Below the pieces are notes generated by a model. It was not told where the DNA came from. It saw only the letters and a list, made by a program, of their open reading frames with translations, and made no database searches. Position numbers and translations under genes: made by a program. Below are positions 34,600 through 41,397 of a stretch of 44,943 bases of DNA, in pieces. The stretch comes from Betaproteobacteria bacterium (GTDB taxonomy: Bacteria; Pseudomonadota; Gammaproteobacteria; Burkholderiales; SG8-41). The first letter of the stretch is position 1; each line of letters opens with the position of its first letter. The stretch lies in the NCBI GenBank assembly GCA_016192835.1, contig JACPTJ010000236.1:1-44943 (forward strand), written 5' to 3'.

Positions 34600-36297
34600 A
34601 TGCCTGCTGTCAATAACGATGGATACTACGAAGTGTTCTGGCCGCGCAGTCCGCGGCAAGCTAATCTGAAGCCGGTTGCGAAACGGCTCGATACCCTGGA
34701 AGGCAAGACGGTTGCACAGCTTTGGGATTTTCTGTTCCGGGGCGACGAAGTGTTCGCACTGTTGGAAGAAGGTCTGAGAGCGCGCTATCCTGGCGTGCGT
34801 TTCGTAAGCTGGCGCGATTTCGGCAACACCCATGGTCGCGATGAACGGGAAGTACTCGCCCGGTTGCCGCAGCGCTTGAAGGAACTGGGGGTTGACGCCG
34901 TTATCTGCGGGATGGCGTGTTGAGGGAGCTGCACGCCCGCCGTGTTGCGGGCGAGTGCAGTCTGCGAGGAAGCCGGCTACCCGACGTCATCGCTCACGTG
35001 CGAAGGTTTTCTGCGGCAGGCGGTCGCGATATCCGTCGGCCTCGGCATGCCGAATATTCCGGTTGCGTTGGTACCGGGCCACGTTGGCACGCAGAGCAAG
35101 GACGAGCTACGGCGCAATATACTTGAGGTCACCGCCGAAAGGGTCATCGAGAACCTGACCCGCACGCTGGCGGCGGGCAGCGGTAACGCGGAGCCCGGAG
35201 CACGCGACATCATCTTCAAAGGCGGCTTCAAGGCGGTGAACCGCCACTTCTATGAGAAGGAGTTGAGCGACGGGCTGCCTGTCGTTCCCCCGACGCAGGA
35301 GGATGTCGAGGCCTTCCTGCGCTTCACCGACCGCGACTCCAACGAGGTGCTGGGCACCATCCTTCCCGACCAACGCGCGGCGACGATCTGGAGCATCGCG
35401 GTAAACGGTGTCATGGCCGGATGCCGCCCGGAATACATGCCGATTCTGGTCGCACTCGTCGAAGCGATGGCCGATCCCGCCTACGGCGTCGAGCACAGCG
35501 GCAATACCCCCGGGAGTGATACGCTCATTATCCTGAACGGACCCATCATCGGGCAACTGGGCTTTAACTACACGCAAGGCGCGTTGCGTGACGGATTCAT
35601 GCCGAACACTTCGATCGGGCGGTTCTGGCGGCTTTACCTGCGCAATGTAGCCGGCTTCCTGCCACGCAAGAACGACAAGGCGACTTTCGGCAATACCTGG
35701 CGGGTGGTGCTCGCGGAGAATGAAGACGTTCTGAAGAAGATCGGCTGGGAACCCAACAGCGTCGAAATGGGATTTAGCGCGGGCGAGAATACGGTGACCA
35801 TCGGGCGCTACACGGGAGGCGGCTCGTTTTCTTCCGTTTCGGGGAGTACGCCGGAGCAGATGCTGCCTTATCTTGTCGATTCGGTGCTCAAGTACCACAC
35901 GTGGCAACTCTTGTTCACTGTGAGCGTCGGCAGCGGGTCGCTACGCCCCCTGCTGGTGATAACCCCGCTCATCGCCGAGACCATTGCGAAAGCGGGGTGG
36001 TCGAAGGCGGACGTGAAGCGCTATCTCTATGAACATGCACGATTGCCGGCATGGGAGTTCGAGCGTTATCTGCGCGACTGGACTATCAGGGGTGTGTGGA
36101 ACCTCGAGGAGGAGGTACGGTTGGGGCGCATGCCTAAGATTGCGCAACAATGCGTATGTGTTTGCGCACAACGGCTTTCTCGGCTATCCGGTGGGCAAGC
36201 GCATCGAACTGCCGCGGGATTGGCAACAGAAACTGGCCGCTCTCGAGTCCTGACGCCAAGACTGTTGTTGGCGCCAGAGGTTATCGAACAGCCTTGA
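34600..36297 (+). CDS. UGSC-type selenoprotein (GrdB-like U-x-x-C domain) fused to a ~370-aa uncharacterised domain. It contains in-frame UGA=Sec, and its 3' end is probably frameshifted.
   Basis: ORFs 34537..34923 and 34942..36297 share one frame and are separated only by TGA plus 6 sense codons. Read-through gives ...VDAVICGMAC-U-GSCTPAVL.... GGGAG lies 5 nt upstream of ATG 34600. The conserved C-terminus (KRIELPRDW) sits in the +1 frame ending at 36253. Confidence 0.7.
34921..34923 (+). other. In-frame UGA proposed to encode selenocysteine (the U of C-U-G-S-C)
   Basis: The same frame continues on both sides. The codon sits in a U-x-x-C redox-type motif, and a hairpin starts 5 nt downstream. 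Confidence 0.7.
34929..34960 (+). promoter_or_regulatory. SECIS-like recoding hairpin
   Basis: CTGCACGCCCGC (34929-34940) pairs with GCGGGC (34947-34952) and GTGCAG (34955-34960). That is 12 Watson-Crick pairs with a 2-nt GA bulge and a CGUGUU loop, with loop G/U 19-22 nt after the UGA. Confidence 0.65.
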
Positions 36298-37039
36298 GAC
36301 GCGAGTGGATATCGTGCCGCAGCGCCGAGAACTCTGGCAGTGTGCGGTGCGACTCGCTGCGGGGACGAGCGAACGGGATATCGAGAACTGCGAGGATGCG
36401 CCCGGGCCGCGGCGTCATGATCATCACGCGGTCGGAAAGATAGATCGCTTCCTCGATGCTGTGGGTCACGAACAACACGGTTTTGCGCGCTGCGGCCCAG
36501 ATGCGCAGCAACTCGTCCTGCATGTCCTCTCGTGTCTGGGCATCCAGGGCGCCGAACGGCTCGTCCATGAGCAGCACTGCGGGATCGATGGCGAGCGCAC
36601 GCGCGATTCCCACCCGCTGCTGCATCCCGCCGGAAAGCTCGTAGGGATACTTCCGCTCGAATCCCTGCAGGCCCACGAGCTCGATCAAGCGCTGCGATAC
36701 GCTCTTCCGCTCGCTTTTCGACGCGCCCTTGATTTCCATGCCGAACTCGATGTTGCCGCGCACCGTTCGCCATGGGAACAGGTTGAACGACTGGAACACG
36801 AAGCCGCGCTCCTGCGTCGGCCGCTCGATCGGCTTGCCGTCCATCAGCACCTCACCGCTGTCGGCGTTCGCCAGTCCGTCGACTATGCGCAGCAGCGTGC
36901 TCTTGCCGCAGCCGCTCGGCCCCAGGATGCTGACGAACTCGGAATCGGTCACCTTGAGTGAGACGTCCTGCAGCGCAATCACGTTGCCGTCGCTGCTCTC
37001 GTAGGTCTTGCACAGATTGCGGGCTTCGATGCTCGCCAT
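36281..37039 (-). CDS. ABC transporter ATP-binding protein (NitT/TauT-type)
   Basis: It has Walker A GPSGCGKST, the LSGGMQQR signature, Walker B LLMDEPF and a Q-loop FQSFNLFPW. Confidence 0.9.
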   Translation of the reverse strand: MASIEARNLCKTYESSDGNVIALQDVSLKVTDSEFVSILGPSGCGKSTLLRIVDGLANADSGEVLMDGKPIERPTQERGFVFQSFNLFPWRTVRGNIEFGMEIKGASKSERKSVSQRLIELVGLQGFERKYPYELSGGMQQRVGIARALAIDPAVLLMDEPFGALDAQTREDMQDELLRIWAAARKTVLFVTHSIEEAIYLSDRVMIMTPRPGRILAVLDIPFARPRSESHRTLPEFSALRHDIHSRLKAVR

Positions 37040-40025: not shown

Positions 40026-40032
40026 GTTTTGC

Positions 40033-41397
40033 TCACACGCTTTCGTATTCGATCGGAAACATCTCATAGGGATCGCGAGGCTCGACCACGTGGCGCAGCG
40101 AGAACTCGTATATCGCGCCGCGCTCGATATCGGAAGGCGAGAACGGAAACGCCATATTGCCTTCCTTGCACATGCGCCCCGGAAAATCGGTGTGCAGCAG
40201 CGTGACGCGCGTAACTGAGATCACCACGTTCGCGAGCTCCTGCGTTTTGGCGATGGCCTCGGCGAGGACGCCGATCTCGTGCGAGGCCGCATCTTTCAGC
40301 GGCTCCCATTCGCCCATCACGCCGTCTTTGCCGTACAGGCGCAGCACGAGCCGGTATTCTTCGGGCGAAACCTGAAAGGCCGTGACTTTGGTCGCGACGG
40401 ATTCGCGCACGGCGCGGATGAAGTCGCCGATCTGTGCGATCAATCCGGGATCGCGCGTGCCCGCAAAAGTGATCGCGCTGTATCCCACTTTCTCCGCCCC
40501 TTCGAGCTTGATCGTGTAGGGCTGCGGCCGCCATTGCATGCCGGACACTCGCACCGCGCGCTCGGTGTGCGCCTTGATCTCACACGCGCTCGTGTCGAGG
40601 AGACCGCCCGGCTCTTTGTGGATGATGGGGCTCGCGTTTTCGTGCAGCGCCTGCACCGCGACCGAGAGCGGCGTGCAGCGCAACTCGGGATTGAGCGGCT
40701 CGACTTCGACGTAATCGGGCGCGACCGTCCCCATGAGACAATCGTGCTTTTTCGGCAGCGCTGCATTGCATGCGCATTCGAGCATTTTGCCGGCAAACCA
40801 CGCTTGAGCGGGCGGCATTCCATGATGCATCGCGAGCGCGGCCCACGGCGCCGGATCGGTACTGCGGCCAGCCAATATCACTTGTGCGCCGGCTTCGAGC
40901 GCAGCCCTATAGGGCTCCGGTCCCATCATGCCGACGATGCGCTCCGCGCGGTCGATCACGGATTCCGTTAACGGCGCTGCGCCGCCGAGCGGATGGATGC
41001 GATCGGCCTGGAGCTGGTCTTTGAGCCACGCTTTGTTCTGCTCCGAATGAATCAGCGCAAGCTTGAAATGAAGGTCGTGCTCGCGCGCGATCTCACGCAG
41101 GATCTCGGCGCAGGTCTGCAGATGCGGTTCGCCGCCCGCGCCGCCGCAAGTGCCGATCATCATGGGGATGCGATTGGCGATGGCCCCGTGCAACAGCAGC
41201 GCCATGTCTCGCTTCATTGCGAGGCGACTGCTCAGGGTTTTGCCGGAGCCCAGGTAGTGCGGGCCCGGATCGGAGCTGCCGCCGTCCACGCCTATCATGT
41301 GCGGCTTGCGACCCAGTCCCGCTTTGAGCGAGCTCTCGGGGAAACCATAGCCGAGAATACCGCTCGCCGAAACCATGCGCACTGCGTCATGCTTCAA
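40033..41397 (-). CDS. DUF1446 / AtuA-like protein, copy 2
   Basis: 454 aa with ASGILGYGFPESSLKAGLGRKPHMIGVDGGSSDPGPHYLGSG and MIGTCGGAGGEPH. It is homologous in layout to 7103..8473. Confidence 0.8.
   Translation of the reverse strand: MKHDAVRMVSASGILGYGFPESSLKAGLGRKPHMIGVDGGSSDPGPHYLGSGKTLSSRLAMKRDMALLLHGAIANRIPMMIGTCGGAGGEPHLQTCAEILREIAREHDLHFKLALIHSEQNKAWLKDQLQADRIHPLGGAAPLTESVIDRAERIVGMMGPEPYRAALEAGAQVILAGRSTDPAPWAALAMHHGMPPAQAWFAGKMLECACNAALPKKHDCLMGTVAPDYVEVEPLNPELRCTPLSVAVQALHENASPIIHKEPGGLLDTSACEIKAHTERAVRVSGMQWRPQPYTIKLEGAEKVGYSAITFAGTRDPGLIAQIGDFIRAVRESVATKVTAFQVSPEEYRLVLRLYGKDGVMGEWEPLKDAASHEIGVLAEAIAKTQELANVVISVTRVTLLHTDFPGRMCKEGNMAFPFSPSDIERGAIYEFSLRHVVEPRDPYEMFPIEYESV

Follow-up and report, generated by a model that had tools for sequence, protein, structure and literature searches.

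The 44,943-nt contig JACPTJ010000236.1 from a Betaproteobacteria bacterium (GTDB lineage Burkholderiales, SG8-41; assembly GCA_016192835.1), the whole of which is called the window below, contains a selenoprotein gene on the plus strand that faces a six-gene operon on the minus strand. The operon encodes an AtuA-family (DUF1446) protein, a DUF4387 protein and an ATP-binding cassette (ABC) importer. The best explanation overall is that two independent units abut here, a putative import-and-cleave cassette and a selenoprotein gene unrelated to it, and we put the probability of this at about 0.75. The operon adds a further member, one with a dedicated ABC importer, to the kind represented by the citramalate lyase CmlAB, and the selenoprotein belongs to a known, uncharacterised family. 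Adjacency of the two units is limited to a few strains that are almost identical. The genes of the units are as follows.

34597–36297, plus strand: fusion 1, a UGSC-family fusion selenoprotein gene (N-terminal UGSC redox domain and a C-terminal domain of about 350 residues)
36281–37039, minus strand: ABC ATPase of the NitT/TauT type, TauB/SaoA-like (PF00005, 112.6 bits)
37039–38082, minus strand: periplasmic NMT1/THI5-like substrate-binding protein (PF09084, 30 bits; cut-off 20.5)
38108–38872, minus strand: ABC permease 2 (PF00528, BPD_transp_1)
38869–39627, minus strand: ABC permease 1 (PF00528, BPD_transp_1)
39714–40025, minus strand: DUF4387 protein, CmlB-like small subunit (PF14330, 121.6 bits; match to PDB 9ERQ_B)
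40033–41397, minus strand: CmlA-like large subunit of the AtuA family (match to PDB 9ERQ_A; 76 bits on Pfam AtuA)

Conservation of the arrangement

Both the selenoprotein gene with its in-frame TGA and the six-gene minus-strand operon (41397–36281) are real, and their coordinates were confirmed. A first-pass annotation had placed them head-to-tail, but the units are convergent, tail to tail. Its description of the junctions within the operon was correct, with a GTGA overlap between the two permease genes and a 1-nt overlap (TGATG) between the genes of the binding protein and the ATPase. The AtuA-family gene and the DUF4387 gene are separated by 7 nt.

The six-gene order was retained in six related loci of other genomes at 84–98% protein identity (L084, L085, L089, L090, L091 and L097; L numbers denote such loci) and in L114 at 58%. 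The window and its relatives are homologous at the nucleotide level only up to 36266–36272 on one side of the cassette and up to 41473–41498 on the other. Other genes lie outside these borders, and within the island the cassette acts like a unit that can be moved. The convergent selenoprotein gene adjoins it only in L090 and L084, which are relatives of about 96% identity, and there with about 144 additional intergenic nucleotides. L089 is 97.4% identical to the window at the nucleotide level over 41498–36270 (5.2 kb) and then continues into convergent hydantoinase A/B genes. L085 and L091 (89% protein identity) have TctC/PrpD genes downstream of the cassette and no UGSC gene, and no UGSC gene was found downstream of the cassette in L097 (84%). 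Among about 17 further independent loci of the CmlA clade with usable flanks, none had a match to the UGSC domain or to the C-terminal domain of the fusion.

The same picture was obtained from the side of the selenoprotein. Within the fetched flanks, none of 59 genes of the same subfamily as fusion 1 in other genomes lay near a CmlA-like gene. Across 82 fusion loci from species-representative genomes, the neighbours were TctC (23), thioredoxin reductase (TrxR)-like proteins (15), short-chain dehydrogenases/reductases (13), PrpD (10), ABC ATPases of other types (8), family III CoA-transferases (7) and TauD (6). A CmlA-like gene together with a DUF4387 gene was present near the fusion gene at 3 of the 82 loci, and homologues of the binding protein or permease 1 of the window were present at none.

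As the co-localisation with the selenoprotein gene is not conserved in related genomes, a composite system of both units is not supported and, by the refutation criterion of the first-pass annotation itself, is refuted. In the best explanation, the two units lie side by side at the level of strains only, in an organic-acid island prone to recombination. The first-pass annotation had proposed one uptake-and-transformation system, to be checked by a survey for UGSC-fusion genes beside DUF1446/DUF4387 and importer genes. This association was lost in L089, L085, L091 and L097 and absent from all 59 genes of the same subfamily. What remains of the proposal is the minus-strand operon, in which the gene pair recurs in about 40 loci and the order of six genes is kept; membership of the selenoprotein is not supported.

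The lyase-type gene pair and its importer

The CmlA-like protein matched chain A of PDB entries 9ERQ and 9EVF, 'Citramalate lyase, subunit A (cmlA)', with an E-value of 2.1e-117 over residues 7–445, and was 44% identical to 9ERQ_A over 435 columns. The DUF4387 protein matched chain B of 9ERQ, 'Citramalate lyase, subunit B (cmlB)', with an E-value of 1.6e-24. Both subunits aligned collinearly with CmlA and CmlB over their full length, with long identical blocks. In CmlAB, an enzyme of Raoultella planticola from the Berg laboratory, the genes of an AtuA-family large subunit and a DUF4387 small subunit are likewise adjacent. In all of about 40 related loci that had sequence downstream, the AtuA-like gene was followed by DUF4387. 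The statement of the first-pass annotation that none of the three non-transporter proteins has an established function is therefore not upheld for DUF1446 and DUF4387 (PDB 9ERQ/9EVF, CmlAB), while it holds for the selenoprotein, a 2026 review still giving no function for the UGSC-containing family.

Only the Raoultella enzyme is reported to cleave (S)-citramalate to pyruvate and acetate, and a 2026 preprint makes use of CmlAB of Raoultella planticola (genes cmlAB, a gift of I. Berg). Kronen and Berg pointed out in 2015 (PMC4682846) that glutamate-mutase clusters of enterobacteria contain, next to methylaspartase, a DUF1446 gene for which there was no explanation. The enterobacterial cml genes lie in such a glutamate-mutase/methylaspartase cluster, whereas the pair in the window heads an operon with an ABC importer of the NitT/TauT type. 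Apart from the pair, the operon contains only transporter genes, and no methylaspartase was found in the window. A glutamate-mutase-like operon (22994–31242) lies about 9 kb from the cassette.

The NitT/TauT importer set is complete in the one operon, with an ATPase, BPD_transp_1 permeases and an NMT1/TauA-type binding protein. The start of the binding protein is most likely ATG 38082, downstream of GGGAGGAGG, and its N-terminus, MSKHTMTRREAMRLIAGAPLVAGAAG... (MSKHTMTRREAMRL...), is consistent with a twin-arginine translocation (Tat) signal, both by inspection only. No NCBIfam match and no PDB sequence match was obtained for the binding protein. The best NCBIfam matches of the transporter were to taurine, SaoA/SaoP, nitrate and sulfonate systems, and those of the ATPase were to the taurine and SaoA ATPases, all of them below the equivalog cut-offs. 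The cassette thus has the component set of TauABC, SsuABC and NrtABCD, with the same family signatures, a single ATPase and an NMT1/TauA-type binding protein. Unlike these importers, it has two distinct permease genes rather than one, and its NCBIfam scores are far under the equivalog cut-offs. The coupling to a carboxylic-acid lyase suggests that its ligand differs from theirs. A scan for promoters and terminators gave nothing above the expectation from shuffled sequence.

With the homology, the invariant pairing of the lyase genes and the six-gene order as observations, the operon most likely provides for the uptake and CoA-independent cleavage of citramalate or a related 2-hydroxy-dicarboxylate, where we infer both the substrate and the feeding of the lyase by the importer. 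The Tat-exported binding protein, the two permeases and the ATPase would import (S)-citramalate or a closely related 2-hydroxy-dicarboxylate. The two-subunit lyase of the CmlAB type would then cleave the imported acid directly, without CoA or an acyl-carrier subunit, and the products, a 2-oxo acid (pyruvate) and a short carboxylate (acetate), would enter central metabolism. The partners of the lyase pair at other loci include a TctC gene in place of the ABC system in L087 (74% identity) and a 2-hydroxycarboxylate (2HCT) transporter gene, which follows the pair in L057 and fits a 2-hydroxy-acid substrate.

Some points weigh against this assignment. No primary paper on CmlAB was found in the literature collection searched, and the function rests on the names of PDB entries and on one preprint in which the enzyme was used. 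An identity of 44% is too low for substrate specificity to be read from it. In addition, the ligands usually associated with NitT/TauT transporters are sulfonates, nitrate and taurine, and less so dicarboxylates. The cassette might instead import and cleave a compound other than citramalate, for example a sulfonated or otherwise substituted hydroxy acid, in line with the NitT/TauT type of the transporter. This would accommodate the distance from the characterised CmlA, the sub-threshold matches to taurine, SaoA/SaoP, nitrate and sulfonate transporters, an operon without a methylaspartase or mesaconase gene, and the joining of paralogous AtuA/DUF4387 pairs to varied transporters (TctC, ABC and 2HCT). 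However, we consider it unlikely, given that both subunits are collinear with CmlA and CmlB over their full length with long identical blocks, that the TctC and 2HCT partners at other loci point to carboxylates, and that a 96% relative has an aconitase/LeuD-type hydratase gene and an enolase-superfamily gene nearby.

The window also has a canonical AtuA gene, of the family known from acyclic terpene utilisation.

7103–8473, plus strand: canonical AtuA gene (474 bits, Pfam AtuA, PF07287)
8416–8733, plus strand: small open reading frame (ORF) overlapping the canonical AtuA gene (AtuA_ferredoxin, PF23544), with PrpD next

The CmlA-like protein is in the same Pfam family as the canonical AtuA of acyclic terpene utilisation (PF07287), but its score is only 76 bits. 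The two proteins of the window were 23% identical, over a partial stretch only, and no PDB sequence match was obtained for the canonical AtuA. Their partners also differ, the canonical gene being followed by the AtuA_ferredoxin ORF and the CmlA-like gene by DUF4387. Because the identity is low and partial, and the PDB match and the partner gene differ, the AtuA-family protein of the operon is assigned by its sequence to a distinct CmlA clade, with the canonical AtuA as a second, functionally distinct branch. The AtuA/DUF4387 pair, which is still labelled 'unknown', can now be read as an enzyme of the citramalate-lyase type, here coupled to its own ABC importer, and this reading helps the annotation of many organic-acid islands of Burkholderiales.

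The selenoprotein genes on both sides of the cassette

The ORF of fusion 1 starts at ATG 34597, with AAAGGGAG upstream. The features within the gene are listed below.

34921–34923, plus strand: UGA selenocysteine (Sec) codon in the motif C-U-G-S-C, an in-frame TGA in the translation
34929–34960, plus strand: hairpin GCUGCACGCCCGC-CGUGUU-GCGGGCGAGUGCAG, resembling a selenocysteine insertion sequence, beginning 6 nt past the UGA (fold of -25.1 kcal/mol)
36141, plus strand: site at which 86 nt of L001 and L090 are deleted, out of frame (from the breakpoints in blastn and by comparing the sequences)

The residues around the TGA read ...VICGMAC-U-GSC-TPAVLRA... With Cys in place of Sec, the Pfam UGSC model (PF24696) scored 96.2 bits over residues 11–187 (cut-off 25). 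The NCBIfam equivalog NF041046, a model of the short stand-alone form of about 147 residues, gave 38.4 bits, below its cut-off of 125. At the aligned Sec codon, in high-scoring alignments from 82 related loci of other genomes, TGA was found 71 times and TGC or TGT 20 times, and there was no stop codon other than TGA. The hairpin of the window taken alone had a z-score of just -1.4, and the same bases encode the conserved TPAVLRA, but its core (GCCCGC/CGUGUU/GCGGGC) was found again in TGA-carrying homologues. The mean minimum free energy of the 60 nt past the TGA was -23.3 kcal/mol, compared with -17.2 in an in-gene control and -18.8 in Cys homologues. The pattern of TGA and Cys codons in the column and the better folding downstream of the TGA make the selenoprotein call for fusion 1 sound at the level of sequence.

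The copy in the window is damaged at its 3' end. Two metagenome contigs, L001 (99% identical) and L090 (97%), both keep 86 nt that are absent from the window at 36141. The deletion takes out FHESGDPNRMVPIVWKPEDYMIAVTGDP, about 28 conserved residues, and shifts the final 35 or so residues out of frame, and the last 50 or so codons in frame 1 are junk. Frame 2 past 36141 yields ...NNAYVFAHNGFLGYPVGKRIELPRDWQQKLAALES*, the conserved C-terminus of the family, which is seen intact in the homologue P0001. The stop of an intact fusion 1 would fall at 36251–36253, while the shifted frame extends to 36297, 17 nt inside the ATPase gene. In L084, a match of 132 nt on one side of the junction is followed by an unmatched contig end, and the missing segment is not confirmed by this contig. 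No obvious direct repeat was seen at the junction. The intact frame that a functional UGSC gene requires is therefore broken in the window copy. Either a real pseudogene allele or a mistake of the assembly could account for the deletion; with the truncation and frameshift that it brings, fusion 1 of the window probably does not function or was assembled wrongly.

On the other side of the cassette, beyond two further genes, lies a second gene of the same kind.

41720–42691, plus strand: TctC gene, between the cassette and fusion 2
42711–43586, minus strand: alpha/beta hydrolase gene, between the cassette and fusion 2
43751 to 44943, minus strand: fusion 2, a second UGSC-fusion selenoprotein gene, outside the operon, with its N-terminus beyond the end of the window

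The frame of fusion 2 is open to the end of the window and encodes the C-terminal part of the UGSC domain. An ORF at 43751–44821 (minus strand) had been considered as a stand-alone copy of the C-terminal domain, and this was ruled out as the open frame encodes the end of the UGSC domain. The close homologues of fusion 2 are 465-residue post-TGA gene calls with PF24696, and its C-terminal domain is 42% identical to that of fusion 1.

The presence of UGSC-fusion genes on both sides of the cassette has to be set against the independence of the two units. With its intact reading, fusion 1 would end 28 nt from the 3' end of the cassette, and fusion 2 lies 2.35 kb from its 5' end. In three other loci, fusion-2-type genes are 1–3 genes away from a CmlAB-like pair, each time on a single strand, and in L083 a more distant fusion gene is near a lyase pair. 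L131 (a metagenome-assembled genome (MAG) of Betaproteobacteria) has the order TctC, fusion (83% to fusion 2), TctC, AtuA (78% to the CmlA-like protein of the window), DUF4387, TctC. L049 (Burkholderiales) has PrpD, TctC, fusion, CmlA, CmlB and a flavoprotein gene on one strand. L057 (positions 1–5463, an Oscillospiraceae MAG) has a compact array of CmlA, CmlB, the 2HCT transporter, fusion and a helix-turn-helix gene, again on one strand. The last of these arrays, from outside Proteobacteria, is the tightest case for a link between UGSC-fusions and CmlAB.

These co-occurrences raise the possibility of a looser link, in which enzymes of the fusion-2 subfamily and CmlAB-type lyases share a dicarboxylate pathway; the partner of the cassette in the window would be the gene at 43751–44943 and not fusion 1. 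For example, the C-terminal domain, which faintly resembles fumarate hydratase, would make or modify the hydroxy acid that is cleaved by the lyase. The link would explain four co-occurrences within 1–3 genes (the window, L131, L049 and L057), one of them a compact same-strand array in a MAG without TctC islands. It would also fit the CmlA-like neighbours of 3 out of 31 subfamily-2-like genes against 0 out of 59 subfamily-1-like genes, and the top 21 Foldseek matches of the domain model, all of which were class I fumarate hydratases, the family to which mesaconase also belongs. However, closer orthologues of fusion 2 have no AtuA gene nearby (L129/L130 at 88%, L135 (P0395) at 86%, L132/L133 at 84%, L136/L137 at 72% and L134 at 67%), and their recurrent partners are a ligase resembling succinyl-CoA synthetase, TctC, GntR, a MaoC-like hydratase and an alpha/beta hydrolase. 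From the lyase side, about 17 independent loci had flanks that could be used, and a UGSC gene was present in none of them. The two families each occur in several copies within the same TctC islands, as in L038 with three fusion genes in 21 kb, and this inflates chance proximity. The structural match is borderline, and it has no support from profile–sequence comparison. Such a link is accordingly improbable, and the three or four co-occurrences were not accepted as proof of it, since the closer orthologues lack AtuA and both families are multi-copy.

A single system for uptake and transformation made up of the selenoprotein and the operon, in which a reductive or C-X-cleaving step falls to the Sec domain, is highly improbable: the adjacency in the window and in two relatives of about 96% (L090 and L084) and the common setting in an organic-acid island are outweighed by the loss of this adjacency in the 97.4%-identical L089 and in every relative at or below 89%, by the 0 out of 59 same-subfamily fusion genes with a CmlA-like neighbour, by fusion loci without homologues of the binding protein or permease 1, by the frameshift in the window copy, and by the inability of convergent genes to share a transcript.

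The UGSC-fusion family and the surrounding island

The UGSC-containing family has been catalogued since 2007–2008 among the commonest selenoproteins of bacteria; it has a UxxC motif, and a role in redox reactions is presumed. A 'UGSC/Unknown_1' fusion was described by Zhang and Gladyshev in 2008 (PMC2398784). Fusion 1 shares with this family (PF24696, NF041046) the U-G-S-C motif with an in-frame TGA and the Cys homologues at the same position, and has a candidate hairpin downstream. As in 'UGSC/Unknown_1', the redox domain is fused to a conserved domain with a conserved Cys, and the C-terminal domain is a putative counterpart of Unknown_1. Fusion 1 of the window differs in being frameshifted and in not reaching the NF041046 equivalog cut-off. 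More than 5,499 homologues of the fusion were found, and the C-terminal domain formed 3,886 clusters at 50% identity. In P0306, P0311, P0312, P0324, P0341 and P0342 (700–1,250 residues), the C-terminal domain is doubled or embedded in larger architectures.

The C-terminal domain of about 350 residues had no Pfam or NCBIfam match in fusion 1, and no Pfam match to it was obtained in any of 81 members. AlphaFold models were confident for a full-length Cys homologue (predicted local distance difference test (pLDDT) 94.1, predicted TM-score 0.94) and for the C-terminal domain of fusion 2 (pLDDT 95.7). In the model, the domain with the Sec position is Rossmann-like, and this position falls between a strand and the point at which a helix begins. 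A single Cys, that of VMAGC[R]PEY, is invariant in the C-terminal domain. A Foldseek search of the PDB with the full-length model gave no match at E<=0.001, while the best matches of the domain-only model were class I fumarate hydratases (E 9e-4 to 5e-3, TM-score of about 0.25, root-mean-square deviation of about 17 Å). These matches, of which a single borderline one (E 9e-4) came below E 0.001, are no more than a lead. A class I (Fe-S) fumarate hydratase fold was not accepted for the domain, as a TM-score of 0.25 is below the 0.5 needed and there is one invariant Cys, compared with three cluster-binding Cys residues in these enzymes. Compared with PDB sequences, a full-length homologue of the fusion had no match at E<=1, and a profile of 81 domain sequences searched against the PDB returned only noise (Hsp104, E 0.04). 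Judging by the models, the C-terminal domain has no clear solved structural relative.

A gene for a TrxR-like flavoprotein of about 315 residues with a CxxC motif was adjacent to the fusion gene (as in most cases) or one gene away from it in 15 out of 82 loci (among them L003, L008, L017, L022, L027, L054, L012, L013, L009, L016, L020, L025, L032 and L018). This flavoprotein is likely to be the physiological reductant of the selenoprotein, and its adjacency in these loci speaks for a putative catalytic cycle between selenol and thiol, powered by NAD(P)H. The fusion 1 type is most likely a monocistronic-looking gene for a thiol/selenol redox enzyme, with a U-x-x-C Rossmann-like redox domain and the domain of about 350 residues, which at other loci would be recycled by the neighbouring TrxR-like flavoprotein.

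The Sec redox domain had been called 'GrdB-like' in the first-pass annotation. The UxxC selenocysteine motif is indeed shared with GrdB and PrdB of glycine and D-proline reductase, and a reductant of the thioredoxin-system type is likely in both cases. However, the PrdB model (TIGR04483) scored 15.7 bits on fusion 1 (E 0.008; cut-off 300). As this is far below the threshold, the name describes an analogy and not membership of the family. None of the partners PrdA, GrdA and GrdE was found near the UGSC-fusion gene, and the hosts of the fusions appear to be mostly aerobic Burkholderiales and Alphaproteobacteria, as opposed to the amino-acid-fermenting anaerobes of GrdB and PrdB.

The UGSC selenoproteins are among the most abundant bacterial selenoprotein families without a known function. 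Two leads on them, the TrxR-like partner in 15 out of 82 loci and the confident models without a clear solved relative, were obtained here, and neither is tied to the neighbourhood flagged by the first-pass annotation. The more novel possibilities likewise concern the family at large and not this locus. UGSC-fusions might be widespread two-domain selenoenzymes that are recycled by TrxR-like flavoproteins, with a C-terminal domain that is a remote, cluster-less relative of the class I fumarate hydratase fold acting on C4–C6 dicarboxylates, and with a fusion-2 subfamily cooperating with CmlAB-type lyases. This combination is a long shot; if true, the catabolism of organic acids in aerobic bacteria of soil and groundwater would have a selenium-dependent branch that has not been described before.

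The description of the surroundings as an organic-acid catabolic island was borne out. The window is dense in such genes, with seven TctC/Bug binding-protein genes, three MmgE/PrpD genes and three genes of the phosphoenolpyruvate-mutase/isocitrate-lyase family. No gene for tRNA-Sec or any other tRNA was found in the window. Further genes of the island are listed below.

1280–5121: hydantoinase A/B
18140–18985: IclR regulator
22994–24022, minus strand: TctC of a B12-mutase-like operon
24232–26388, minus strand: ADP-forming acyl-CoA synthetase
26403–27866 and 27918–29411, minus strand: two paralogous MutE-type large subunits
29408–30802, minus strand: MutL
30799–31242, minus strand: small B12-binding subunit (motif GADVHIIG)
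33213–34397: acyl-CoA dehydrogenase

The B12-mutase-like operon covers 22994–31242 on the minus strand. As its E subunit is duplicated and there is no methylaspartase, the mutase may act on some compound that is not glutamate. Next to it, on the plus strand, an ORF of 636 residues (20979–22889) combines a PGA_cap domain (capsule-synthesis/metallophosphatase-like) with a short-chain dehydrogenase domain; this is perhaps an unusual fusion, or else the ORF caller has joined two separate genes.

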